From Eubacteriales bacterium (lineage in GTDB: Bacteria; Bacillota; Clostridia; Oscillospirales; CAG-272), in NCBI GenBank assembly GCA_045661325.1, contig JAZRFK010000039.1, positions 4,563-68,562 of the forward strand: a stretch of DNA of 64,000 nt, given 5' to 3'. The position numbers and the translations under genes were made by a program. Below, one piece after another: positions 16,955 to 29,049 of this stretch. The notes beneath the pieces are model-generated. The model was not told the DNA's origin, did no database searches, and saw only the letters and a list, made by a program, of their open reading frames with translations. Positions within the stretch are counted from its first letter, which is position 1, and each line of letters opens with the position of its first letter.

Positions 16955-18022
16955 TTAGTCCTCTAACTGATAGGTCCAGCCATAGCTGTCGGGAAGAGTT
17001 CCCCACTGGATACCCGTCAAGGAATTATAGAGATGGGCGGTTACCTCACCGATTTCGCCATTGTTGATGGAATACTTCTTGCCCATATAGCAAAGTTCGC
17101 CAATGGGAGAGATAACAGCGGCAGTACCGCAGCCCCAAGCCTCCTCAAGCTTGCCCTCCTCCAAAGCCTTTGCCAGCTCGTCAATGCTCAAGCGGCGCTC
17201 GCTGACGCGATAGCCCTCGGCGCGCAAAAGCTCCAAGCAGGATTTTCTGGTGATACCGGGAAGAATAGATCCGAGAAGCGAAGGGGTAACAACCTCGCCG
17301 TCAATCTTGAACATAACGTTCATAGCGCCGACCTCTTCGATGTACTTGCGCTCAACACCGTCAAGCCAAAGAACCTGCGACTAGCCTGCCTTTCCGGCCT
17401 TCTCACCTGCACGGTTGGAAGCGGCATAGTTACCGCCGCACTTGGCCTCACCGGTACCGCCACGAACGGCACGAACGTCATCTGCCTCGATCATAATCTT
17501 AACGGGGTTAATGCCCTCCTTGTAGTAGCTGCCTACGGGGGAGGTAATGATAACGAAGGTTGCGTGCTTTACCGCGTGCACACCCAAGGTTTCATCGTTT
17601 CCGCACATAAAGGGTCGGATATAAAGGGAGGTGCCGGGGGCAGGGGGCGTCCAATCCTGCTCAAAGGCAATAAACTTGGTTAAAACCTCCATTGCCAAAT
17701 CCTCGGGAATGGTGGGCAGGCAAAGTCTGTCTGCCGAGCGATTCATACGGCGAATGTTCTCGATGGGACGGAACATCTGCACCTTTCCGTCGGCACGGCG
17801 ATAGGCCTTTAAGCCCTCGAAGATTTCGCTTCCGTAATGAAGCGCGGTGCAAGCGGGATGGATAGCCAAGGGGCCAAAGGGAACGATTCTTGCGTCATGC
17901 CAGCCCTCCTCGACAGAATAGTCCATCATAAACATATGGTCGGTAAAATACTTGCCGAAGCCGAGAACAGAAGGCTCGGGCTTTACCGCGGGATTCGGGT
18001 TTCTCGTAATTTTGATTTCCAT
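16955..18022 (-). pseudogene. ilvE: Branched-chain amino acid aminotransferase interrupted by one in-frame TAG (17381-17383)
   Basis: Track ORFs 17381..18154 and 16955..17323 are in the same frame. Translation reads ...GNYAASNRAGEKAGKAG[TAG][28 protein letters not shown]..., colinear with IlvE. ATG 18022 with AAGGAG RBS. Confidence 0.75.
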
Positions 18023-18038: not shown

Positions 18039-18581
18039 TTAGCCCTGATAGTCCTTGCCAAGACGCATAGCGCCGAGGTTGACATCCAGCATATCCGCAC
18101 GCTTGGCGGAGATAACCTTTTTAAGTGCAGCCAGAACCTTCTCTTCATCCTCAAAGGCGCCGCTTTCTGCCAAAACCTTACCCATGATAATCATATTGGC
18201 GAGAGTGGGCGTTTTGTTGTCGGATGCCATCTGGGTGGCAGGGATATAATGCACCGTCACATCGGTACGGTTAACCTTGCGGGAAATGAGGGTGGAATCC
18301 ACGTAAATGGTGCCGCCGGGAGCAACGCTGGACTCATACTTGTCCAAGGAGGGCAGGTTCATCGCAATCAGAACGTCGGGATTCGATACGATGGGAGAGC
18401 CAACGGGAATATCGCTGATGATAACGCTACAGCTTGCCGTACCACCGCGCATTTCGGGACCGTAGGAGGGCAACCAGCTGACGTTTTTGCCGTCATTGAG
18501 GCCCTGGTAAGCTAAGAACTTGCCTGCGAACAGGATGCCCTGTCCACCGAAGCCTGCAAACAAATACTGGGTCGTTTTCAT
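18039..18581 (-). CDS. 2-oxoacid:ferredoxin oxidoreductase gamma subunit
   Basis: [14 protein letters not shown] and [11 protein letters not shown] motifs; ATG 18581 with AAGGAGG RBS. Confidence 0.85.
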
Positions 18582-18594
18582 TTCTGCTTCCTCC

Positions 18595-19338
18595 TTACTT
18601 TCCTGCGCTTCTATCCTTATACACCCCAAGAGGATAATAAGGAATCATTTTTTCATCAATACAAGCCAAAGCCTTTGCAGGCGTCATACCCCAGTTGGTC
18701 GGGCAAGAGGAAACAACCTCTACCAAGGAGAAGCCTTTTCCGTTGACCTGGTTTTCAAAGGCCTTTTTGATAGCCTTCTTGGCATTCTTGACGTTCTTGA
18801 CGTTGTTAACGGCAACACGCTCCAAATACTCGGGGCCGTCCAGCTGAGAAAGCATTTCGCAAACCTTGATGGGATAGCCGCAATGAGAAACGTCACGTCC
18901 GTAGGGAGAGGTCTGGGTGACCTGACCGGGCAAGGAGGTGGGAGCCATCTGACCGCCCGTCATACCGTAAATGGCGTTGTTGATGAAGATAACGGTGATG
19001 TTTTCGTTTCTGGCGGCGCTATGTACCGTTTCTGCCATACCGATGGAGGCAAGGTCGCCGTCACCCTGATAGGTGAATACGATGTTATTGGGGTCGGAGC
19101 GCTTAACGCCCGTTGCAACGGCAGGTGCTCTACCGTGAGCGGCCTCAATCATATCACAGTTAAAGTAGTCGTATGCCATAACCGAGCATCCAACGGGGGC
19201 AATACCAATGGTTCTTCCCTCAATACCAAGCTCGTCCATTACCTCGGCAACCAGACGATGCACGATGCCGTGGGTACAACCGGGGCAATAGTGTAAGGGT
19301 GCATCGGAAAGCGCATGGGGTTTATCAAATACTACCAT
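18595..19338 (-). CDS. 2-oxoacid:ferredoxin oxidoreductase beta (TPP-binding) subunit
   Basis: HYCPGCTHG Cys motif, GDGD TPP-binding region; ATG 19338 with AAGGAGG RBS, 1 nt after the alpha stop. Confidence 0.88.
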
Positions 19339-19339
19339 T

Positions 19340-20401
19340 TCAGTTACCTCCTTTATCGGCGGCCTCAATAGCGGCCAGCACCTCTTCGGGCGAAGGAATC
19401 ATACCGCCCGCTCTGTTGCAAAGAGTGACGGGGGCCTTGCCGTTGACGGCCAGGCGAACGTCCTCAATCATCTGACCCATAGAAAGCTCAACGGACACGA
19501 AGGCTTTAACCTTTTCGGCCGCTGCGGCAAACTGCTTCTTGGGGAAGGGCCAAAGCGTGATGGGACGAATCATACCCACCTTAATGCCCTTGGCTCTTGC
19601 CTCGTTGATGGCGTTCTTGGAAACACGGGCGGCGATACCAAAGGCGGCCACGCAGATTTCCGCATCCTCCATCATATATTCCTCGTAGAGAACCTCGTTC
19701 TCCTCGATGTACGCATACTTCTCGTAGCGCTCAAAGTTGGTTTTTTCCAGCTCTTCGGGCTTCAAGAACAGAGAGTTGACGATGTTATGGGGTCTTTCAA
19801 GCTTGGTACCCGTCACAGCCCAAGGCTTTGCGGGAGCCTCCTCAATATCAAAGGAGAGAGAAACGGGCTCCATCATCTGACCCATCGTGCCGTCTGCCAG
19901 AATCATAGAGGTCATACGGTACTTGTCTGCCAGGGCAAAGCCCTTCACCGTCAGCTCTGCCATTTCCTGCACGGAGGCAGGCGCCAGAACCAACATATGA
20001 AAGTCGCCGTGTGCGCCACCCTTGGTTGCCTGGAAATAGTCGCTCTGAGAGGGCTGAATACCGCCAAGTCCGGGGCCGCCGCGCTGAACGTTTACGATGA
20101 GAGCGGGAAGATCCGCGCCTGCCAGATAGGAGATGCCCTCGCCCTTCAAGGAAATTCCGGGGCTGGAGGAGGAGGTCATCACGCGCTTGCCCGTTGCGGA
20201 AACGCCGTACACCATATTGATGGCGGCGATTTCACTTTCGGCCTGCAAGAAGGTGCCGCCGATTTTGGGCATTCTTTTTGCCATATAAGCAGCAATTTCG
20301 GTTTGGGGGGTAATGGGATAGCCAAAGTAATGACGGCAGCCTGCGATGATGGCCGCCTCGGCAATGGCTTCGTTGCCTTTCATTAATACCTTATCAGACA
20401 T
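19340..20401 (-). CDS. 2-oxoacid:ferredoxin oxidoreductase alpha subunit (KorA/VorB type)
   Basis: [31 protein letters not shown]-terminus typical of OFOR alpha subunits. Confidence 0.88.
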
Positions 20402-20408
20402 TGCTTTT

Positions 20409-20615
20409 TCACCTTTCTACCTTAATGATACAGTCGGGACACATCGTGGCGCAGAAGGCGCAGCCGATGCACGCTTCCTCGTTCACAGCCTTAACGGGAT
20501 GGTGACCCTTTTGGTTAATGGTTTCGGCATCAAGCGCCAGAACCTGCTTGGGACAAGCATCAACACAAAGGCCACAGCCCTTGCATTTTTCAAATTTAAA
20601 GGTTAATTTTGCCAT
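20409..20615 (-). CDS. OFOR delta subunit, 2x[4Fe-4S] ferredoxin
   Basis: CKGCGLCVDACP and CIGCAFCATMCP motifs in 68 aa; AAGGAG RBS. Confidence 0.85.
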   Translation of the reverse strand: MAKLTFKFEKCKGCGLCVDACPKQVLALDAETINQKGHHPVKAVNEEACIGCAFCATMCPDCIIKVER

Positions 20616-20626
20616 GGTATTCTCCT

Positions 20627-21286
20627 TTACATTCGTTTTTGTAATAATATAGGACGGTAGCTATCGCTCTCGGCCGAAAAATACTGCCAAAGCGACTCGT
20701 GCACCGTGGTATACAAAAATGGAATTTGGGCGGCGGCGGCAACCTCCTTGGCGAAGGCAACCGATCCGCGCACATCCTCTTCGGTGGTTTCCGCACCGAG
20801 ATTGGAATTGTTAATCAGGGCGGTAAAGCGAAGGCCGGAGGCCGCCTCAATCTCGTTCATAACGGTCAAAGCACCGTCAAGATCACGCGTCAAGGGACGA
20901 TAGCCGTTCAAGACGAATATCATCTGGTAATCGTTCTCCTCCTTGATGGCAGGAACGAGTCTACCAAGTGCCAAAGCCCCTCTTTCGTCACCTCCCACAT
21001 CCAGCACGGCGCGAAACGATTTATCGTCTGTCACGGCGTAAATTTCAGCGGGAAGCGCGGGAATGTCAACGTTACTGTTGGCATACGCCGAGCAGATAAG
21101 GCGAACGTCTCGCTCCTTCAAGAGCGCTTCACTGTCCTTCGTGCGAAAATAGGGATTGACAATATCGATATCGGCGATAATCACCTTTTCGTGCGTCTTT
21201 CGCAGAGAGAGCGCGTAATTCACTGCGATGTTGGTTTTTCCGCTACCGTAGTGACCCGAAAAAATCGTTATTCGTTTTTCCTGCAT
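20627..21286 (-). CDS. P-loop NTPase (MinD/ParA/CooC-like), function unknown
   Basis: Walker A FSGHYGSGKTNIAVN close to the N-terminus; GGAAGGAG RBS; sits between acyl-CoA synthetase and OFOR genes. Confidence 0.55.
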   Translation of the reverse strand: MQEKRITIFSGHYGSGKTNIAVNYALSLRKTHEKVIIADIDIVNPYFRTKDSEALLKERDVRLICSAYANSNVDIPALPAEIYAVTDDKSFRAVLDVGGDERGALALGRLVPAIKEENDYQMIFVLNGYRPLTRDLDGALTVMNEIEAASGLRFTALINNSNLGAETTEEDVRGSVAFAKEVAAAAQIPFLYTTVHESLWQYFSAESDSYRPILLQKRM

Positions 21287-21325: not shown

Positions 21326-23611
21326 TTATAAAAGATTTCTTTGGATTTTTCCCGTGGCCGTCTTGGGAAGCGCATCACGGAAAACAATAATTCTGGGGTA
21401 TTTATAGGGCGCAGTATGCGTCTTGACGTAATCCTGAATTTCCTTGACAAGCTCGGGCGAGGGCTCTGTTCCCTTCACCAGAACGATGCTGGCCTTGACA
21501 ACCTGGCCTCTGACCTCGTCAGGTGCGGCAGAGACGCCGCATTCCAGAACGTACGGCAGCTCCATAATGACGCTTTCAATCTCGAAGGGCCCGATGCGGT
21601 AACCGGAGGACTTGATAACGTCATCCACGCGGCCAACGTACCAATAGAAGCCGTCCTCATCGCGCCAAGCCACGTCACCCGTATGGTAATAGCCGTCGTG
21701 CTTAACCTCGCGCGTCTTTTCCTCATCGTGATAATACTCGTCAAAGAGACCGCAGGGAGAACCGTTTTCAATCTTGATAACGATTTCGCCCGATTCACCG
21801 ACAGGAACACGACTGCCGTCTGCGGCAAGCAAATCCACGTCATAAATGGGAGCAGGCTTACCCATCGAACCGATTTTATGAGGCGCACCGCGCATATTTC
21901 CGATTATCATCGTGCTTTCGGACTGGCCGAAGCCCTCCAAAATCTGAATGCCCGTTGCCTCCTCGAATTGACGGTAGACCTCGGGGTTTAAGGCCTCGCC
22001 CGCCGTTGTCATATGCTTGACGGAGGAGAGATCGTACTTGGAGATATCCTCCTTGACCATCATACGAAGCATGGTCGGAGGCGCGCAGAAGGTGGTGATT
22101 TGATATTTGGCAAACATAGGCAGAATATCGTCTGCGTGGAAGCGCTCGAAATCGTAAACGAAGGTTGCCGCCTCGCAGAGCCATTGGCCGTAAAGCTTGC
22201 CCCAGAGTGCCTTGGCCCAACCTGTATCCGAAATGGTAAAGTGCAAGCCGTCCGAATCGACGTTATGCCAATACTTTGCGGTATGGAAATGGCCCAAGGG
22301 ATATTTGTGATTATGTACGGCGATTTTGGGATAGCCCGTGGTACCCGAGGTAAAGAACATCAAAAGCGTGTCATTACCGCAGGGGGTATCGGCGGTGCGC
22401 TCAAAATGGGTACTGTAAAGGACGCATTCCTCGTCAAAGCTGCGCCAGCCGTCCTTTTCGCCGCCAACCATAATTTTAATGAGCTTTTTGTCTAACTGCG
22501 CCTCGGCCTTGTCGACCTCCGTGCTGACGCCGCCTCTTCCCGTACAGAGAATGGCCGAAACGCCTGCCGCCTTGAAGCGATATTCAAAATCGTGGTCAAG
22601 CAGCTGATTCATAGCGGGAATGGCGATAGCGCCCAAGCGGTGCAGACCCAGCATTGCGTACCAGAACTGATAGTGTCTGCCCAGAACCAGCATTACGCGG
22701 TCGCCCTTTTTGATACCGAGCGACTTGAAATAGTTGGCCGCACGGCAGGAATTTTTCTTGATGTCGGAAAAAGAGAGTCTGGTTTCCGTTTTATCGTTCG
22801 CCACGTGCAAAAGCGCAAGCTTGCCCGGCTCCTTTTCCGCGATTTTATCCACCACGTCGTAGGCGAAGTTAAAGGTATTCTCGTTTTTGAAGGTGATGGA
22901 GGTGGGGGTGCCGTTTTCGTCCTCCTCGGTATCCACAAATGCGGAGTATACTCTTTCCTTTTCGTCACGCTTGGCCGGACGGCTTTGCACCGCACGAGAG
23001 GGCTGAAGCTCGGGAATGGGCTCGCCCGTGGGATTCAATACAATAGCGTAGAAGCGACAGTCCTCTCCCTCAACGGCTATCATACCGTGGGGCGTGGAGC
23101 TATCGTAATAAATGCTGTCACCGGGGCCAAGAATCTCCACGTGAGAGCCGATTTGCACCTTCAAGTGACCGCTCAACACAATGTCGCACTCCTGACCGTC
23201 GTGCGTGGTTAATTCTATGTCTCTTACCTGCGCCTTTTCGCTATAACGGCTGCACACGTAAAGAGGCTCGGCAATACGGTTTCGGAAAGCAGAGGCCAGG
23301 TTGAAATAGGTCATTCCGTGCGCCTCTTCAATGCGCTGTCCCTGTCCGCTTCTCGTTAAGGTATAAGATTTCAGAGTCGGGCTTTTACCCTCGATAATAT
23401 CCGTTACATCCACGTTGAAGGCGGAGGCACAACGGTAGATAAAGGCAAAGTTCAAGTCCGATTCGCCGTTCTCACAGGCAAGATATTCTGCCTCGGCTAC
23501 GCCCGTTTTGGCGGCCATTTCCGCCACCGTCAAGCCCTCGATTTCGCGAAGCTCACGGATACGGCTTGCCATTTCCTTTATTTTCAAATCAAGTCCCGTA
23601 ATTCCTTGCAT
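21326..23611 (-). CDS. HTH(XRE)-cupin domain fused to an AMP-forming acyl-CoA synthetase (paralog 1)
   Basis: N-terminal HTH (LTVAEMAAKTGVAEAEY), cupin (GDSIYYDSSTPHGM), then adenylation core FFTSGTTGYPK, YHTGD, SSGYRIGPFEIES, PKTATGKIQR. Start set to ATG 23611 (GGAGG RBS), because the longer ORF overlaps the leader terminator. Confidence 0.85.
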   Translation of the reverse strand: MQGITGLDLKIKEMASRIRELREIEGLTVAEMAAKTGVAEAEYLACENGESDLNFAFIYRCASAFNVDVTDIIEGKSPTLKSYTLTRSGQGQRIEEAHGMTYFNLASAFRNRIAEPLYVCSRYSEKAQVRDIELTTHDGQECDIVLSGHLKVQIGSHVEILGPGDSIYYDSSTPHGMIAVEGEDCRFYAIVLNPTGEPIPELQPSRAVQSRPAKRDEKERVYSAFVDTEEDENGTPTSITFKNENTFNFAYDVVDKIAEKEPGKLALLHVANDKTETRLSFSDIKKNSCRAANYFKSLGIKKGDRVMLVLGRHYQFWYAMLGLHRLGAIAIPAMNQLLDHDFEYRFKAAGVSAILCTGRGGVSTEVDKAEAQLDKKLIKIMVGGEKDGWRSFDEECVLYSTHFERTADTPCGNDTLLMFFTSGTTGYPKIAVHNHKYPLGHFHTAKYWHNVDSDGLHFTISDTGWAKALWGKLYGQWLCEAATFVYDFERFHADDILPMFAKYQITTFCAPPTMLRMMVKEDISKYDLSSVKHMTTAGEALNPEVYRQFEEATGIQILEGFGQSESTMIIGNMRGAPHKIGSMGKPAPIYDVDLLAADGSRVPVGESGEIVIKIENGSPCGLFDEYYHDEEKTREVKHDGYYHTGDVAWRDEDGFYWYVGRVDDVIKSSGYRIGPFEIESVIMELPYVLECGVSAAPDEVRGQVVKASIVLVKGTEPSPELVKEIQDYVKTHTAPYKYPRIIVFRDALPKTATGKIQRNLL

Positions 23612-23635
23612 ACTTCCTCCAAGATTGTTATGGCG

Positions 23636-23901
23636 ACAAAAAAAGCCCGCCACAAAGATAAATACTTTGAGACGAGCTTGCTAATCAAAACCCGCGGTAC
23701 CACTCAAATTGCGGCAGATGCCGCCCCTCAGGGTCAATCAACCCGTATGCACTAACGCAGCAAACGCGGAGAGGTTCTACTCGATTCTCTTTCTTCCTCT
23801 CGGCTCGGAAGCTACAAACAGGAGGCAGCATTTAGCGACTCACACCAACCGTCGCTTCTCTGAAAAAGCCGCGTTCCTACACTCTTCGTCAACGCCTTTA
23901 T
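23636..23901 (-). promoter_or_regulatory. T-box leader, specifier read as GUA (Val)
   Basis: Minus strand: stem I base GGC-GTTGA-C-GAAG ... CTTC-C-GA-GCC (GA/K-turn), AGAGA bulge, distal loop GGTTGGTG. T-box AATTTGAGTGGTACCGCGGG (23710-23691). Terminator AGCTCGTCTCAAAG / CTTTGTGGCGGGCT + T7. Specifier GTA (23815-23813) followed by purine G directly before the CTTC helix. Confidence 0.8.
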
Positions 23902-23907
23902 AGAGTC

Positions 23908-23936
23908 ATATTACCACACTTTAAAGTATTTGTCAA
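23908..23936 (-). promoter_or_regulatory. Promoter of T-box(Val) leader
   Basis: TTGACA (23936-23931), 17 nt, TAATAT (23913-23908); spacer contains palindrome ACTTTAAAGT (23918-23927). Confidence 0.7.
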
Positions 23937-23981
23937 CTGTTTTTTTAAAATATTATTTAATTATAGAAGCATCAAGGAAGC

Positions 23982-26249
23982 TTAGAGCTTGTTTCTCTGA
24001 ATCTTGCCGCTGATGGTTTTGGGAAGCTCCGTGCGGAATTCCACAATACGCGGATACTTATAGGGCGCGGTATGCTCCTTGACGTAATTCTGGATTTCCT
24101 TTTTCAATGCCTCTGTTGGCTCGGTTCCCTTCACCAAGACGATGCTGGCCTTGACAACCTGGCCTCTGACCTCGTCGGGTGCGGCAGAGACGCCGCATTC
24201 CAGAACGTACGGCAGCTCCATAATGACGCTTTCAATTTCAAAGGGCCCGATGCGGTAGCCGGAGGATTTGATAACGTCATCCACGCGGCCAACGTACCAA
24301 TAATATCCGTCCTCGTCACGCCAAGCGGTGTCACCCGTATGGTACAAGCCATCGTGCCAGGCATCCGCCGTTTTTGCGTCATCACGGTAATATTCTCTGA
24401 AAAGACCGCAGGGAATGCCCTTATCCGTATGGATAACGATTTCACCGATTTCACCCGCAGGAAGCGATTTTCCATCGGCATCGACAACATCTACGTCATA
24501 TTGGGGATTTGCCTTACCCATAGCGCCGATTTTGGGAGTTGTGCCGTAAAGATTTGCAATAGCAAGGGTGGTTTCCGTTTGACCGAAGCCCTCCATAATT
24601 TCAAGACCCGTTGCCGTTTTGAACTGGTTGAACACCTCGGGGTTCAACGCCTCGCCTGCGGTGGTCATATGATGAATGGAGGACAAATCAAATTTGGAAA
24701 GATCGCCGCGAATAAGCATTCTGAGCATCGTGGGCGGTGCACAGAAGGTGGTGATATTGTACTCTGCAAACATAGGAAGCAGATCGTTTTCATCAAACCT
24801 ATCGAAGTCATAGACGAAAACGGCGCCCTCGCAGAGCCACTGACCGTACAGCTTACCCCACAGGGATTTGCCCCAGCCCGTATCGGAAATGGTTAAATGC
24901 AAGCCGTCACGCTCGCAGCAATGCCAATATTTAGCCGTTACGTAATGACCCAAGGCGTAGGTATGCTTATGCGCCGCCATTTTGGGATTGCCCGTGGTAC
25001 CCGAGGTGAAGAACATCAGCGCAAGGTCATCTCCTGCGGAGCAGTCCTCGGGGCGCTCGTACTTGCTGGAAAACAGCTTATACTCCTTATCAAAGTCAAG
25101 CCAGCCGTCCTTGACGCCGCCAACCATCAAAAGCTTTTCCACCTGAGGACATTTCTTGGCGGCACTTTGTGCATAGGTATAGGTATCTCCGTCAGCGGTG
25201 CATACGATGGCCTTGACCCCTGCGGAATTGTATCTGTACTCAAAATCGTGTTCCTTTAACTGATTCGTTGCGGGAATGGCAATCGCGCCCAGCTTATGAA
25301 GAGCCACCATACAGAACCAGAACTGATAATGACGCTTTAAGACCAACATAACCTTATCGCCCCGCTTGATGCCCAAGGAGGTGAAATAGTTTGCCACCTG
25401 GTTAGATGCCTTCTTGATGTCCTTAAAGGTAAAGCGTCGCTCGTTCTTGTTTCTGTCAAGGTGAAGCATGGCGAGCTTCTCGGGATAGCTATCGGCAATG
25501 CCGTCAACGATGTCGAAGCCGAAGTTAAAGCTTTCGGTGTTTTTGAAGCGAATGCTTTGCAGCTGTCCGTTTGCATTTTCCTTAACGTCAAGGAATTTTT
25601 CGCAAACCAGTGCCTCGCTCTTTTTAGCGGCAATAACGCTTTTTCTGACAACCGTTTCATTGGAATTGTCGCCCGACATAACCACCGCAACGAAGGTACA
25701 GTCCTTGCCGTCAACGGCAATCATTCCGTGCGGAATAGAGGAATTGTAGTAGATGCTATCGCCCTCCTCCAAGACCTCGGTATGCTCGCCGACTTGAATT
25801 TTCAGCTTGCCGTTTAAAACAAGGTCAAACTCCTGACCGCTGTGCGTGGTCAGATGAATGGGCTTATTTTGCTGCGATTGAGAATATTCGTAGGTTACGT
25901 AGTAGGGCTCTGCGAGCTTATCCTTGAACTTGGGCGCCAGGTTGGCAATATCAATGCCGTCCTCCTTGGCAGTTCCCTGTCCCTTGCCCTTTCTCGTCAC
26001 CGTATAGGTAGAAAGCTTTGCCGTGCTACCCTCCAGAAGCTCCGTCATTTCAACGCCGAAGGCCAGCGCACATTTATGGATAAAGGAGAACGGAATATCC
26101 ACCGTACCGCTTTCATAAGAAAGATAGGTAGACTCGTCCACATCGGTTTTTTGCATCATATCGTTTACGGAGAAGCCCATAATTTCGCGCAGCTCTTTGA
26201 TTCGAGTTGCGATTTCCGATAACTGACTTAAAGTGTTGTTTGTATTCAT
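23982..26249 (-). CDS. HTH(XRE)-cupin domain fused to an AMP-forming acyl-CoA synthetase (paralog 2)
   Basis: Same architecture as paralog 1: HTH, cupin (GDSIYYNSSIPHGM), FFTSGTTGNPK, YHTGD, PKTISGKIQR; ATG 26249 nine nt after AAGGAGG. Confidence 0.85.
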   Translation of the reverse strand: MNTNNTLSQLSEIATRIKELREIMGFSVNDMMQKTDVDESTYLSYESGTVDIPFSFIHKCALAFGVEMTELLEGSTAKLSTYTVTRKGKGQGTAKEDGIDIANLAPKFKDKLAEPYYVTYEYSQSQQNKPIHLTTHSGQEFDLVLNGKLKIQVGEHTEVLEEGDSIYYNSSIPHGMIAVDGKDCTFVAVVMSGDNSNETVVRKSVIAAKKSEALVCEKFLDVKENANGQLQSIRFKNTESFNFGFDIVDGIADSYPEKLAMLHLDRNKNERRFTFKDIKKASNQVANYFTSLGIKRGDKVMLVLKRHYQFWFCMVALHKLGAIAIPATNQLKEHDFEYRYNSAGVKAIVCTADGDTYTYAQSAAKKCPQVEKLLMVGGVKDGWLDFDKEYKLFSSKYERPEDCSAGDDLALMFFTSGTTGNPKMAAHKHTYALGHYVTAKYWHCCERDGLHLTISDTGWGKSLWGKLYGQWLCEGAVFVYDFDRFDENDLLPMFAEYNITTFCAPPTMLRMLIRGDLSKFDLSSIHHMTTAGEALNPEVFNQFKTATGLEIMEGFGQTETTLAIANLYGTTPKIGAMGKANPQYDVDVVDADGKSLPAGEIGEIVIHTDKGIPCGLFREYYRDDAKTADAWHDGLYHTGDTAWRDEDGYYWYVGRVDDVIKSSGYRIGPFEIESVIMELPYVLECGVSAAPDEVRGQVVKASIVLVKGTEPTEALKKEIQNYVKEHTAPYKYPRIVEFRTELPKTISGKIQRNKL

Positions 26250-26274: not shown

Positions 26275-26537
26275 AAAAAAACAAAACCCGCCCCAAAGAA
26301 AAATCTTTGAGGCGGGTGAAAACACTCGCGGTACCACTCAAATTGCGCCGAAACGCCACTTTACGAAGTCCAACAACTTCTGCACACTAACGCTGTGCTC
26401 CTCGTGAAGCCCTACTGCTTTCAGGCTCCAGGCTCGGAAGTGATAGGGTTTTCTCTCTGCGCTACGGCTCGCACCAACCGCCGTTTCTCTTGGCCGCTAT
26501 CCGAGAAGCCCGTCTTCGTCATTGCCTTTTTCAATTT
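26275..26537 (-). promoter_or_regulatory. T-box leader, specifier read as AUC (Ile)
   Basis: Minus strand: GGC-AATGA-C-GAAG ... CTTC-C-GA-GCC, AGAGA bulge, GGTTGGTG distal loop. T-box AATTTGAGTGGTACCGCGAG (26344-26325). Terminator ACCCGCCTCAAAGA / TCTTTGGGGCGGGT + T-run. Specifier ATC (26444-26442) followed by A before the CTTC helix. Confidence 0.8.
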
Positions 26538-26543
26538 GGTAAG

Positions 26544-26572
26544 ATTGTATCACACTTAAACGGGTTTGTCAA
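26544..26572 (-). promoter_or_regulatory. Promoter of T-box(Ile) leader
   Basis: TTGACA (26572-26567), 17 nt, TACAAT (26549-26544). Confidence 0.7.
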
Positions 26573-26858: not shown

Positions 26859-26886
26859 TTGACAAAACGCACGCAGATGGTATAAT
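26859..26886 (+). promoter_or_regulatory. Promoter of the 701-aa gene
   Basis: TTGACA (26859-26864), 16 nt, TGgTATAAT extended -10 (TATAAT 26881-26886). Confidence 0.7.
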
Positions 26887-26943: not shown

Positions 26944-29049
26944 ATGAGAACCGAGCAGAATTACGATTTTCAGCGTGAGCTTTTGACGGTGCATGAGCCT
27001 CACTTGCAAGACGAAAGCCGCACAAAGAGGGCAGACGAGCTTTGGCTCTCTGACGGTGCGCGCATTCGCATTGATGCAAATGCCTCTGAGGTAATAGCTG
27101 TTGCCGCCGCCGATTTTTGTGATTATCTCTCCGTTTCGATGGGTGTCAAGGCATCCGTTGTGACCGAGGGTGAGGGCGACGTGACCGTTCGTCTCGCCGC
27201 CGACGTGGGCGTGGATCTCGGCGAGTTTGCCGCTTACAAGGGCTTCCGTATCGAGACCGACAAGGACGGCATCGTCATCACCGCGCACGATGACAGAGGT
27301 GCGGGACAGGCACTCTTCTATATTGAAGACCTTATGACCTTTGAGGGCGCGCCCTGTCTTGCCTACGGCAAGATCGAAAAGCGTGCCATGTACACTCCGC
27401 AGATGGTACATTCAGCGTACGATATTGACGAATTTCCCGATGAGTACATCGCGCGCATTGCTCACGAGGGACGAGATGCACTTCTCATCTTTACCAAGGG
27501 CGTTGGCATCTCCGCGCGCGGTGAGGAGGACTTTAACGATCTCATCCGCCGCGCCGCACGTTACGGTGTTGATGTGTATGCATACAGCAAGATCAAGAGT
27601 GAAAAGCACCCCGACGATCCCGATGCGGAAGAATACTACGACAGCACCTACGGTGAGCTGTTCCGCCGCTTCCCTGGACTTCGCGGCGTGACGCTGGTTG
27701 GCGAGTCCATTGGATTTCCCTCCAAGGACACTCGTTCCGGTCCGTGGCACAACCCCGACGGTATCCCTTCCGGAAAGACGCATCCCGGATTTTTCCCCTG
27801 CTACGATTATCCCGAATGGATGAATATGCTCAAAAACGCCATCCGCCGTGTTAAGCCGGACGCTGACATTGTTCTTTGGACATATAACTTTGGCTGGTGC
27901 TCGAAAGAAGAGCGTGTCAAGCTTATTGAGTCACTCCCCACCGACATCTCCCTCAACGTCACCTTTGAGATGTACGAGTTTAAGCCGTGCGGTAATTCGC
28001 TCATCAAGTGCTGTGACTATACCCTTGCCTTTGAGGGCCCCGGTTCTTATTTTGCGAGCGAGGCAGAGGTGGCAAAGCGCCGTGGCATCCGCCTCTATTC
28101 TATGACCAACACGGGCGGCAGAACCTGGGACTTTGGCGTTGCTACCTATGAGCCGATGCCTTATCAGTGGATGCGCCGTTACGCCGCCATGAGCCGTGCA
28201 CAGAAGGATTGGGGACTTTCCGGTATTATGGAAAGCCACCACTTCGGCTTCTATCCCTCCATCATTACCAAGCTTTCCAAGCACGCCTTTATGCTCCCCG
28301 AGGAGAATTATGAGGAGCTTCTTGATAAGATCTTAAAGGCTGAATACGGAAAAGAGAACCTTGAAAGCGCCAAGGCAGCGCTTGCCGATTTCAGCGAGGC
28401 TATCCGCTACTATACCCCCACCGAGTCGGATCAGTACGGTGCGCTCCGTGTCGGTCCTGCACATCCCTTCAATCTGGCGCAGACCATCAAGATCCCCTCT
28501 GATCCCAACTCGATGTTTGCTGACCGCATCTGGAAGCCCAAGTACCTGACCACCATTGTCGGACACTGGCTCACATCCGTCTCTCCTCAGGCGATCCGTG
28601 TTCGTGAGGAGGCAAAGTCGATGCAGACCATGCTTTCCCTGATGGAGTCGGGTATTGCCAAGCTGGCCGCCGCTCCTGTGCAAAATGCAAAGCTCGTCCG
28701 CCTTGCAGGGCTTGGACAGTTTATCGCCAACTCCGTCAAGACGGGTATCGCCGCAAAATATTTCCACCTGCTCGATGCAGAGTTGAAGGTTGCTACTGAT
28801 ATTGACAGACAGAAAGCTATCTGCGACGAGATGGAGGCCATCCTTCTTGCAGAGCGTCAAAATGCTCTCGATACCATTCCGCTCGTTGAAGCGGACTCTT
28901 CGCTCGGCTACGAGCCCTCCATGCACTATATGTGCGACAAGGAACACCTTGAATGGAAAATTCGCCATACCGACTACGTTCTCGGCATCGAGATTCCCGA
29001 GCTTCGCGCTTCCATCAAGACCCATGAGGAATTTTTGAAAAAGCAATAA
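26944..29049 (+). CDS. Hypothetical 701-aa protein, putative glycoside-hydrolase-like (GH20b-like N-terminal domain)
   Basis: Long clean ORF with AAGGAG RBS; N-terminal segment VRLAADVGVDLGEFAAYKGFRIETDKDGIVITAHDDRGAGQALFYIEDL resembles the accessory domain of hexosaminidase-type enzymes; catalytic family not recognised. Confidence 0.45.
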   Translation: MRTEQNYDFQRELLTVHEPHLQDESRTKRADELWLSDGARIRIDANASEVIAVAAADFCDYLSVSMGVKASVVTEGEGDVTVRLAADVGVDLGEFAAYKGFRIETDKDGIVITAHDDRGAGQALFYIEDLMTFEGAPCLAYGKIEKRAMYTPQMVHSAYDIDEFPDEYIARIAHEGRDALLIFTKGVGISARGEEDFNDLIRRAARYGVDVYAYSKIKSEKHPDDPDAEEYYDSTYGELFRRFPGLRGVTLVGESIGFPSKDTRSGPWHNPDGIPSGKTHPGFFPCYDYPEWMNMLKNAIRRVKPDADIVLWTYNFGWCSKEERVKLIESLPTDISLNVTFEMYEFKPCGNSLIKCCDYTLAFEGPGSYFASEAEVAKRRGIRLYSMTNTGGRTWDFGVATYEPMPYQWMRRYAAMSRAQKDWGLSGIMESHHFGFYPSIITKLSKHAFMLPEENYEELLDKILKAEYGKENLESAKAALADFSEAIRYYTPTESDQYGALRVGPAHPFNLAQTIKIPSDPNSMFADRIWKPKYLTTIVGHWLTSVSPQAIRVREEAKSMQTMLSLMESGIAKLAAAPVQNAKLVRLAGLGQFIANSVKTGIAAKYFHLLDAELKVATDIDRQKAICDEMEAILLAERQNALDTIPLVEADSSLGYEPSMHYMCDKEHLEWKIRHTDYVLGIEIPELRASIKTHEEFLKKQ

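Follow-up and report, generated by a model that had tools for sequence, protein, structure and literature searches.

The locus described here raises the question of what a module resembling a transcriptional regulator does at the N-terminus of an acyl-CoA synthetase. Two neighbouring paralogous minus-strand genes, ACS2 and ACS1, lie in the window, the stretch of 64,000 nucleotides that we analysed, and their products were originally predicted to join an XRE-type helix-turn-helix (HTH), a cupin barrel and a full acyl-CoA synthetase (ACS), and to bind DNA in the manner of BirA. Domain assignment with Pfam bears out this architecture in both proteins, which exceed the curated cut-offs for HTH_19 (33.3 and 31.5 bits, cut-off 30.2), HTH_3 (31.4 and 23.1 bits, cut-off 23), Cupin_2 (47.2 and 43.3 bits, cut-off 27.2), AMP-binding (205 and 220 bits) and AMP-binding_C (73 bits). 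The two proteins are 61% identical over 752 residues, and the positions of all features are collected in Table 1. The catalytic part matches the Methanosarcina MACS structure 3etc (E 2.6e-192), and the ANL motifs SGTTGxPK, GYRIGPFE and GK749, the last with the C-terminal catalytic lysine, are invariant among 25 sequences. MbcS is the best NCBIfam model for the ACS domain, although scores of 453.9 and 431.6 bits on the MbcS equivalog NF047394 are far below its cut-off of 850, and neither protein is thus an MbcS ortholog. We infer that ACS1 and ACS2 are paralogous short branched-chain acid:CoA ligases, their acid substrates being likewise predicted.

The two ligase genes head an operon that continues with a gene for a P-loop NTPase-like protein, the four genes of a 2-oxoisovalerate:ferredoxin oxidoreductase (VOR, VorDABC) and ilvE. 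On NF005507, which has a cut-off of 399 bits, the VorB alpha subunit reaches 541. An NCBIfam search with the P-loop protein gave no match, and an ortholog that is 55% identical lies in front of vorD elsewhere (L059). A single in-frame TAG at 17381-17383 interrupts ilvE; a frameshift reading of this gene was dropped, as the reading frame is kept. The presence of VorDABC and IlvE fits a reductive-carboxylation route from branched acids to branched-chain amino acids, and the acid-to-amino-acid logic first proposed for the operon is supported. Gut and rumen are rich in branched-chain fatty acids, and their reductive carboxylation to valine and isoleucine is an old physiological observation whose genes and control are poorly defined.

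Table 1. Features of the ligase operon and its leaders, in window coordinates.
Feature	Position	Strand	Details
Promoter P2 (ACS2)	26544..26572	-	TTGACA-17-TACAAT, TG extended -10
P2 spacer, 17 nt	26566-26550	-	contains CGTTTAAGTGTGA; motif 26550-26562
T-box leader 2 (ACS2)	26305-26531; with terminator 26286..26531	-	specifier AUC (Ile)
Terminator hairpin of leader 2	26317-26286	-	
ACS2	23982..26249	-	755 aa; ATG at 26249 behind RBS
ACS2 HTH	26025-26216	-	residues 12-75
ACS2 cupin	25665-25904	-	residues 116-195
ACS2 variable linker		-	about residues 196-232
ACS2 acyl-CoA synthetase part		-	residues 233-755
Promoter P1 (ACS1)	23908..23936	-	TTGACA-17-TAATAT, TG extended -10
P1 spacer, 17 nt	23930-23914	-	contains ACTTTAAAGTGTGG; motif 23914-23927
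T-box leader 1 (ACS1)	23665-23901	-	specifier GUA (Val), then G; UGGU in antiterminator bulge
ACS1	21326..23611	-	761 aa; ATG at 23611 behind RBS
ACS1 HTH	23384-23566	-	followed by cupin, then acyl-CoA synthetase
ACS1 cupin	23042-23215	-	
P-loop NTPase-like protein	20627..21286	-	219 aa; weak ParA/CbiA matches; conserved in operon
2-Oxoisovalerate:ferredoxin oxidoreductase	18039..20615	-	four subunits: vorD, alpha, beta, gamma
vorD	20409-20615	-	ferredoxin
VOR alpha subunit (VorB)	19340-20401	-	
VOR beta subunit	18595-19338	-	
VOR gamma subunit	18039-18581	-	
ilvE	16955..18022	-	branched-chain aminotransferase
Operon terminator	16921-16883	-	

Each ligase gene is preceded by its own sigma-A promoter and T-box leader, as had been predicted. 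Leader 1 scores 98.5 bits on RF00230, above the gathering score of 93, and leader 2 falls short of it at 80.6 bits, with an E-value of 3.6e-17 and all elements present. The specifiers are conserved: ATC is found in all 21 type-2 orthologous leaders and GTA-G in 14 of the 16 type-1 leaders that could be parsed. It is known that T-box leaders can be duplicated and retuned to different codons. We propose that each T-box would set transcription of its ligase according to uncharged tRNA-Ile (AUC) or tRNA-Val (GUA), with ACS2 tuned to the isoleucine branch, probably for 2-methylbutyrate, and ACS1 to the valine branch, probably for isobutyrate. Both would feed acyl-CoA to the VOR-type 2-oxoacid:ferredoxin oxidoreductase and then to IlvE, rebuilding isoleucine and valine from branched-chain fatty acids in the order acid, acyl-CoA, 2-oxoacid, amino acid. 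The locus would represent a complete tRNA-gated gene set for this route in a large uncultured group of the Oscillospirales, and one whose entry enzymes always carry an unstudied regulator-like module. Our literature search returned nothing direct on an XRE-HTH-cupin-ACS fusion or on T-box control of acyl-CoA ligases.

Compared in pairs, 20 type-2 orthologs have an identity of 0.61 in the HTH, 0.73 in the bridge, 0.74 in the cupin and 0.70 in the N-terminal ACS segment (ACS-N), and 0.36 in the linker; the HTH-cupin module is as conserved as the enzyme, is under purifying selection and is functional. The architecture is widespread, with at least 599 module loci in species genomes of Oscillospirales, and the module is present in 93 of the 151 family genomes, usually in the form of two fusions in tandem. 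There are also ten split forms in which the module gene lies directly upstream of an unfused ACS gene, and the same arrangement was seen in all three distant representatives looked up, with gaps of 12-28 nt. Some distant split forms adjoin ACS genes without a VOR, for example in arginine-biosynthesis clusters. Four of five module-less family genomes lack an ACS ortholog as well. Judged by its genomic company, the module appears to be a dedicated partner of the ligase. XRE-cupin regulators are normally local repressors, are linked to metabolic genes and repress neighbouring enzyme genes (PMC7901475), so that a module encoded next to the ligase gene could be a local repressor just as it could be a subunit.

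A repressor fused to its enzyme would be a trigger enzyme like BirA, with the HTH bound to an operator in the P1 and P2 spacers and an acyl-adenylate or acid as co-repressor, and would add a transcriptional sensor of supply on top of the T-box. Enzyme-repressor fusions of this kind exist in BirA, NadR and PutA, and the HTH is not only above the Pfam cut-offs but is modelled with an XRE-like fold at high confidence (pLDDT 91 for the module, and above 90 for the five-helix HTH domain). A promoter-binding acyl-CoA ligase has also been reported, FadD1 of P. aeruginosa (PMC12754631). The two strings proposed as a shared operator are indeed present in the spacers, which agree at 12 of 17 positions and so fall in the top 1.2% of 322 different-genome spacer pairs, and the P1 spacer contains the perfect palindrome ACTTTAAAGT. 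About five of the twelve matches belong to the generic (T)GTGn of the -16/extended -10 element, which accounts for the GTGTG part of the motif, and two are the AA that follows the -35. Across 16 genomes, spacers from the same genome do not on average resemble each other more than those from different genomes (mean agreement 7.1 versus 6.6). The P1/P2 motif is present, yet not clearly above what promoter grammar and chance, or local paralogy, would give.

Comparison with about 97 orthologous promoters (37 + 60) does not support an operator either. The layout of P2 recurs in orthologs, but the rest of the shared motif is absent from these promoters, including those of relatives about 89% identical, between which the spacers already diverge. 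The only elements conserved besides the T-box are an UP-like A tract, the -35, the -16 TRTG and the -10, with GTG at positions -4 to -2 before the -10 in 47 of the 60. The orthologous promoters share no conserved element from the -10 to where the T-box begins, and a search for enriched 6-mers between the -10 and Stem I returned only AAAGGC, which is the T-box start. Separately, a CAATTGAAT-like string lies between the -10 and Stem I in one subclade and is not general. A conserved palindromic operator at the module's own or a neighbouring promoter was found in none of the roughly 97. Of the original prediction for the spacers, then, the two strings stand and their role as operator does not, although footprinting would miss an operator that co-varies quickly with the protein, and one may also exist at another place in the genome.

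The surface of the HTH also speaks against DNA binding. Its net charge is -6 and -7 in the two window proteins and lies between -3 and -9 in every fused protein, with means of -5.7 in 21 type-1 and -5.8 in 21 type-2 fusions, -6.1 in 10 split forms, -5.4 in 5 stand-alone forms and -5.2 in 66 representative relatives; a strongly acidic HTH is seen in 42/42 fused, 10/10 split and 66/66 representative proteins. The 12 other HTH_3 domains in the same genome, by comparison, have net charges of -2 to +3, and PuuR and SutR have +2 and +4. In both window proteins the octet of the recognition helix (helix 3) contains no K, R, Q, N or H and two D/E, as against two to five and zero to one in 11 controls, and glutamate occupies places where DNA-binding XRE domains have Arg, Gln or Asn. 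Neither fusion shows the basic or amide residues and the near-neutral or positive charge of a surface suited to DNA, bearing in mind that charge and residue composition predict DNA binding only indirectly and that acidic residues can contact bases. We infer that the HTH of the module no longer reads DNA. The acidic DNA-reading surface and the lack of a conserved operator make it more likely that the module controls the enzyme than the gene, and we regard the BirA-like role originally envisaged as unlikely.

We instead think it somewhat probable that the XRE-HTH/cupin module is a non-DNA-binding sensor or partner domain that acts on the ligase. Seven residues are invariant in 64 relatives at 32-69% identity (R16, H136, E140, G147, G163, D164 and H174), and H136, E140 and H174 correspond to a 2-His-1-carboxylate pattern in the cupin. 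The pocket that they line would most likely bind a small molecule or metal, and the module would most likely modulate the activity or assembly of the ligase after translation. Few type-specific positions distinguish the Ile from the Val paralogs, 18 in the module and without a clear pocket signature, and their scarcity in the cupin argues against sensing of a specific amino acid or acid. The second sensing layer of the original prediction may persist in altered form, with the cupin sensing a ligand and acting on the enzyme instead of on DNA. The full-length AF2 model, built from a 25-row alignment, is only moderate (pLDDT 76, pTM 0.64), such that the domain arrangement and the docking of the module on the enzyme are not firmly readable from it; a complex prediction of the module (1-205) with the ACS part (216-755), run without controls, scored 0.23 against a mark of 0.32 and is neutral on docking.

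As improbable to us as the BirA-like role is a module that senses no ligand and serves for docking or oligomerisation, linking ligase to ligase, to the VOR complex or to the P-loop protein, with acyl-CoA being channelled. XRE HTH domains can serve protein binding, as in RodZ with MreB, and the conserved HTH surface is both acidic and hydrophobic; the tight operon coupling of the split forms and the co-occurrence with VOR and the P-loop gene are consistent with such tethering. However, the cupin pocket, in which the His-Glu-His, Asp164 and Gly residues are invariant, suggests a bound ligand or metal more than a mere scaffold, and the distant split forms adjoin ACS genes without VOR. Still less probable is a catalytic cupin, built like HppE and HEPD as a mononuclear-metal enzyme, by which the acid or acyl-CoA would undergo an additional reaction, since, although HppE, Psf4, HEPD and MPnS directly follow 1y9q in the Foldseek ranking for the module model and the 2-His-1-carboxylate pattern is invariant, the route requires no further step, the regulator PuuR has the same HxGxE...PH pattern, and identity to HppE is only 17-18% with an rmsd of about 10 Å over both domains.

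Returning to the module as a sensor or partner of the ligase, we suggest more tentatively that an ancient acidic XRE-cupin fold may have been recruited as a non-DNA-binding allosteric partner through which a small molecule or metal gates short/branched-chain ACS; in several phyla its gene is separate and translationally coupled, and in the Oscillospirales of gut and rumen it is part of the ligase. Such gating would differ from lysine acetylation, a known way of controlling ACS, and would operate here under tRNA-sensing T-boxes. If the module is an allosteric sensor, a transcription-factor fold has been reused as an enzyme-control domain, and database records now called "XRE family transcriptional regulator" or "cupin domain-containing protein", several hundred of them and perhaps thousands, would have to be re-annotated. 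If it binds DNA after all, the fusions are a new trigger enzyme.

These proteins share features with several known systems. An XRE HTH followed by an HxGxE...PH cupin is also the plan of the repressors PuuR and SutR, of P. aeruginosa ErfA, PsdR and PauR, and of 1y9q, which is the best PDB match of the module both by sequence and by structure. Those repressors are stand-alone proteins of about 180-190 residues that act as dimers on palindromic operators, whereas the present module is joined to an ACS in one polypeptide or encoded translationally adjacent to one and, unlike in PuuR and SutR, its HTH has a net charge of about -6 and no conserved operator. As in the trigger enzymes BirA, NadR and PutA, an adenylate-forming or metabolic enzyme is covalently joined to an HTH-type domain, which makes them the conceptual model for linking regulation to catalysis; BirA, however, has a winged HTH, a defined operator and adenylate-driven dimerisation, and the fusions have an HTH without DNA-contact residues, for which no operator was found. 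The phosphonate enzymes HppE, Psf4, HEPD and MPnS, in which a cupin likewise follows an XRE-like alpha-helical domain, carry a 2-His-1-Glu metal site and do not bind DNA, and they are a precedent for an XRE-cupin fold without DNA binding. Besides their low identity, they differ in domain orientation, in being free-standing oxygenases or epoxidases and in belonging to an unrelated pathway.

The catalytic ANL part, with all its motifs, resembles M. acetivorans MACS (3etc) and S. aureus MbcS, the latter of which activates short branched acids (PMC10026030, PMC11167679). Unlike the fusions, MACS and MbcS have neither an N-terminal regulator-like module nor a T-box, and MbcS feeds fatty-acid synthesis whereas the route proposed here leads to amino acids. 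FadD1, another acyl-CoA ligase, was reported as a noncanonical transcription factor and is proposed to link regulation with the binding of fatty acids, but it lacks an HTH-cupin module and its DNA binding, for which EMSA and ChIP-seq gave the evidence, was attributed to a leucine-zipper motif (PMC12754631). The leaders have the Stem I with specifier loop, the UGGU T-box bulge and the terminator of class I T-box riboswitches. T-boxes usually control aminoacyl-tRNA synthetase, transporter or ilv genes, whereas here they precede the acyl-CoA ligases of a salvage route, and the Val leader has a G after the codon where the usual T-box has an A.

ACS2 and, downstream of it, ACS1 are paralogous acyl-CoA synthetases with an N-terminal XRE-type helix-turn-helix (HTH) and a cupin (together, the module), and HMM assignment confirms this architecture as originally read for both: HTH_19/HTH_3, Cupin_2, AMP-binding and AMP-binding_C all exceed their Pfam cut-offs in each. 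The two proteins, 61% identical, belong to the ANL acyl-CoA synthetase superfamily, with MACS and MbcS closest. Their catalytic parts match 3etc, the structure of a medium/branched-chain acyl-CoA synthetase from Methanosarcina acetivorans (E 2.6e-192), and among NCBIfam models the S. aureus ligase for short branched-chain acids, MbcS (PMC10026030), ranks first, at scores well under its equivalog cut-off.

Both ligases lie in a single operon-like minus-strand array with a P-loop protein, an oxidoreductase (VOR) and an aminotransferase, and the intergenic gaps 3' of ACS1 are 1-39 nt, the vorC-ilvE gap being computed from the corrected ilvE start. Ligase, VOR and IlvE are the genes required to convert 2-methylbutyrate to Ile and isobutyrate to Val via reductive carboxylation, from which we infer the acid substrates. 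No terminator separates the ACS2 stop from P1 (23937-23981), and therefore ACS2 read-through runs into T-box 1 and the common VOR and IlvE genes are found only behind the Val leader.

Features of the operon-like array (window positions)
Feature	Position	Strand	Remarks
Promoter P2	26572-26544	minus	TTGACA, 17 nt, TACAAT; TG extended -10
T-box leader 2	26305-26531	minus	terminator 26317-26286
ACS2	23982-26249	minus	
Promoter P1	23936-23908	minus	TTGACA, 17 nt, TAATAT
T-box leader 1	23665-23901	minus	
ACS1	21326-23611	minus	
P-loop NTPase-like protein, 219 aa	20627-21286	minus	between ACS1 and vorD
2-oxoacid:ferredoxin oxidoreductase, four subunits			alpha subunit 541 bits vs VorB model (cut-off 399)
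Branched-chain aminotransferase ilvE	16955-18022	minus	terminator 16921-16883 after gene

Three other features of the region deserve mention. The ilvE frame is intact except for a lone in-frame TAG (17381-17383, minus) where relatives predict an aromatic residue, which could be a true nonsense mutation, strain variation or a MAG assembly error. The P-loop protein has weak ParA/NUBPL and CbiA matches, matches no NCBIfam family, and has a 55%-identical counterpart in another genome (L059, 780-1367), also in front of vorD; it may serve in the maturation or assembly of the oxidoreductase. Directed away from P2 is a perfect 12/12 consensus promoter with a TG extension (26859-26886, plus), facing a 701-aa ORF (26944-29049, plus) with no Pfam match at E <= 0.001.

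In the Rfam alignment leader 2 has the specifier AUC, then A (Ile), and leader 1 has GUA, then G (Val); both have UGGU in the T-box bulge, which fits A73 tRNAs. When the window's pair is counted together with 20 orthologous tandem loci of the same family, the specifier is ATC in 21/21 upstream (type-2, ACS2-like) leaders and GTA-G in 14 of 16 parsed downstream (type-1, ACS1-like) leaders. We also note that in the Val T-box and its orthologs (L032-L051) G replaces the usual A 3' of GUA in all 14 parsed GTA orthologs.

The chemistry of the HTH is peculiar for a DNA-binding domain. Its net charge is strongly negative in fused, split and stand-alone forms (see table). The first eight residues of the recognition helix contain two to five Lys/Arg/Gln/Asn/His and at most one acidic residue in 11 same-genome controls, whereas ACS1 and ACS2 each have two acidic residues and no Lys/Arg/Gln/Asn/His, and the type-1 consensus at the helix start is xEEYLxCE. 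The conserved surface is acidic and hydrophobic, unlike the polar and basic surface with which DNA is read. Pairwise identities across 20 type-2 orthologs are 0.61 for the HTH, 0.73 for the HTH-cupin segment, 0.74 for the cupin, 0.70 for the ACS N-domain and 0.36 for the linker; HTH and cupin identities are near that of the ACS N-domain, so the module is maintained by selection and is not decaying.

Net charge of HTH domains, computed on the 62-residue HTH segment; same-genome controls are 53-55 aa Pfam matches
HTH group	n	Net charge
Window ACS2 / ACS1	2	-6 / -7
Fused type-1 orthologs	21	mean -5.7
Fused type-2 orthologs	21	mean -5.8
Split forms	10	mean -6.1
Related stand-alone proteins	5	mean -5.4
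Representatives at 33-65% identity	66	mean -5.2 (range -10 to 0)
E. coli PuuR	1	+2
E. coli SutR	1	+4
Other HTH_3 domains, same genome	12	-2 to +3

The original prediction placed a possible operator in a motif common to both promoters, and the strings are indeed present at 23914-23927 and within 26550-26566, both inside 17-nt -35/-10 spacers. We aligned 20 orthologous tandem pairs, then 64 further orthologs from species genomes, anchored on the -10 hexamer; every aligned orthologous promoter has TTGACA-17-TAnnnT, and information is confined to an A tract upstream, the -35, one or two A residues at the start of the spacer, (T)GTG right before the -10, and the -10 itself. The mid-spacer has zero information content across these promoters, and spacers differ wholly even between relatives about 89% identical in protein. 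GTG lies immediately 5' of the -10 in 47 of 60 promoters, and because (T)GTG is a conserved column there, the motif's GTGTG half is a -16/extended -10 element, which is frequent in Gram-positive promoters; the TTTAA(A)G half is confined to the source genome in the promoter alignments. As an operator the motif is not supported. The window's two spacers are identical at 12/17 positions, a value reached by only the top 1.2% when 322 different-genome pairs are compared, but it is the most extreme case out of 16 genomes tested, and mean matches are 7.1 for same-genome and 6.6 for different-genome pairs. A regulator acting at both promoters would predict that same-genome spacers resemble each other in general, and they do not. 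Between the -10 and Stem I, the orthologous promoters show no conservation except the T-box start AAAGGC. A CAATTGAAT-like string does recur in an ortholog subclade at about +5 to +15 of type-2 leaders, downstream of the -10 and ahead of the T-box start (L094, L098, L100-L104, L109, L112-L122 and others); it is missing from window P1 and matched loosely in P2.

The module occurs only twice in the source genome (1.9 Mb, 98% complete), in ACS1 and ACS2, and is present in 93 of 151 family genomes, almost always as a tandem pair of fusions whose open frames span about 750-860 aa. In species genomes, at least 599 stretches with the module were confirmed, among 600 matches listed; their titles point to Acutalibacteraceae, Oscillospiraceae, Ruminococcaceae and unclassified Clostridia MAGs of gut and rumen origin. 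The protein database holds at least 8000 relatives; the best 120 are all 754-784 aa, with the cupin and both AMP-binding domains in all and an HTH match in most. In databases the fusion is annotated simply as "cupin domain-containing protein" or "AMP-binding protein", and we found no paper on it. In ten family genomes a third copy is split, with a 182-189-aa module gene immediately 5' of an ACS gene that is unfused and shares about 50% identity with ACS2. An exhaustive profile search with a threshold of E <= 1e-3 gave 2540 representatives, of which many are about 185 aa, and in all three looked up (33-39% identity, unrelated contigs) the module gene lies 12-28 nt 5' of a 549-553-aa AMP-binding gene. 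Among five family genomes lacking the module, the ACS ortholog is likewise absent from four, and in the fifth there is just an unfused paralog at 47% identity. The fused and split pairs and the joint absence therefore indicate that module and ligase clade travel together, fused or tightly coupled.

Two further settings were observed. One of the three representatives lies in an arginine-biosynthesis cluster. In L075-L077, contigs that are possibly Bacteroidota (a guess from a Por_Secre_tail gene), the split module and ACS are housed in such a cluster, with matches for Arg_repressor, semialdehyde dehydrogenase, P5C-reductase-like, module, ACS, DUF2007 and OTCase, and the ligase clade therefore extends beyond branched-chain amino-acid salvage. 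A third class in family genomes (L052-L056) comprises stand-alone acidic HTH-cupin proteins, 191-198 aa as called and 44-47% identical, without an ACS neighbour but within a conserved array (RsmE-like, CdaR-like and FtsE/FtsX neighbours, judged from N-terminal sequences only), with a THF riboswitch farther upstream at two loci.

Known XRE-cupin repressors likewise adjoin their target enzyme genes (PMC7901475), so synteny by itself cannot separate a regulator from a subunit. A BirA-like repressor, as originally proposed, would accord with the XRE-cupin fold and the habits of that family, but the acidic HTH, the recognition helix devoid of DNA-contact-type residues and the lack of a conserved operator weigh more heavily, and we consider this role unsupported and unlikely. 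That the module is a docking or oligomerisation device that senses nothing is similarly improbable.

The module model (64-row alignment, pLDDT 91) has five helices and a cupin barrel. Its top Foldseek match is 1y9q, a Vibrio HTH_3/cupin regulator (TM 0.60/0.67), followed by HppE, Psf4, HEPD, MPnS and PhpD, which we take to be non-DNA-binding enzymes combining an XRE-like alpha domain with a metal cupin. R16, H136, E140, G147, G163, D164 and H174 are invariant over 64 relatives. His-x3-Glu...His is the customary 2-His-1-carboxylate cupin pattern; PuuR shares it with the module, so it cannot tell sensor from enzyme. A catalytic, HppE-like cupin seems very unlikely.

The reading we favour, with slightly better than even confidence, is that the T-boxes set the level of transcription through tRNA-Ile and tRNA-Val charging, and that the module would be a sensor or partner domain without DNA binding, its cupin binding a ligand or metal and the module acting on the ligase. 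Of the two sensing layers first envisaged, the T-box layer stands and acid sensing at the promoter is not supported; the second layer would persist only in an altered, post-translational form. The module shares its fold with XRE-cupin transcription factors, but differs from them in two defining features open to sequence analysis, the DNA-reading helix and the conserved operator, and we therefore do not class it among them.
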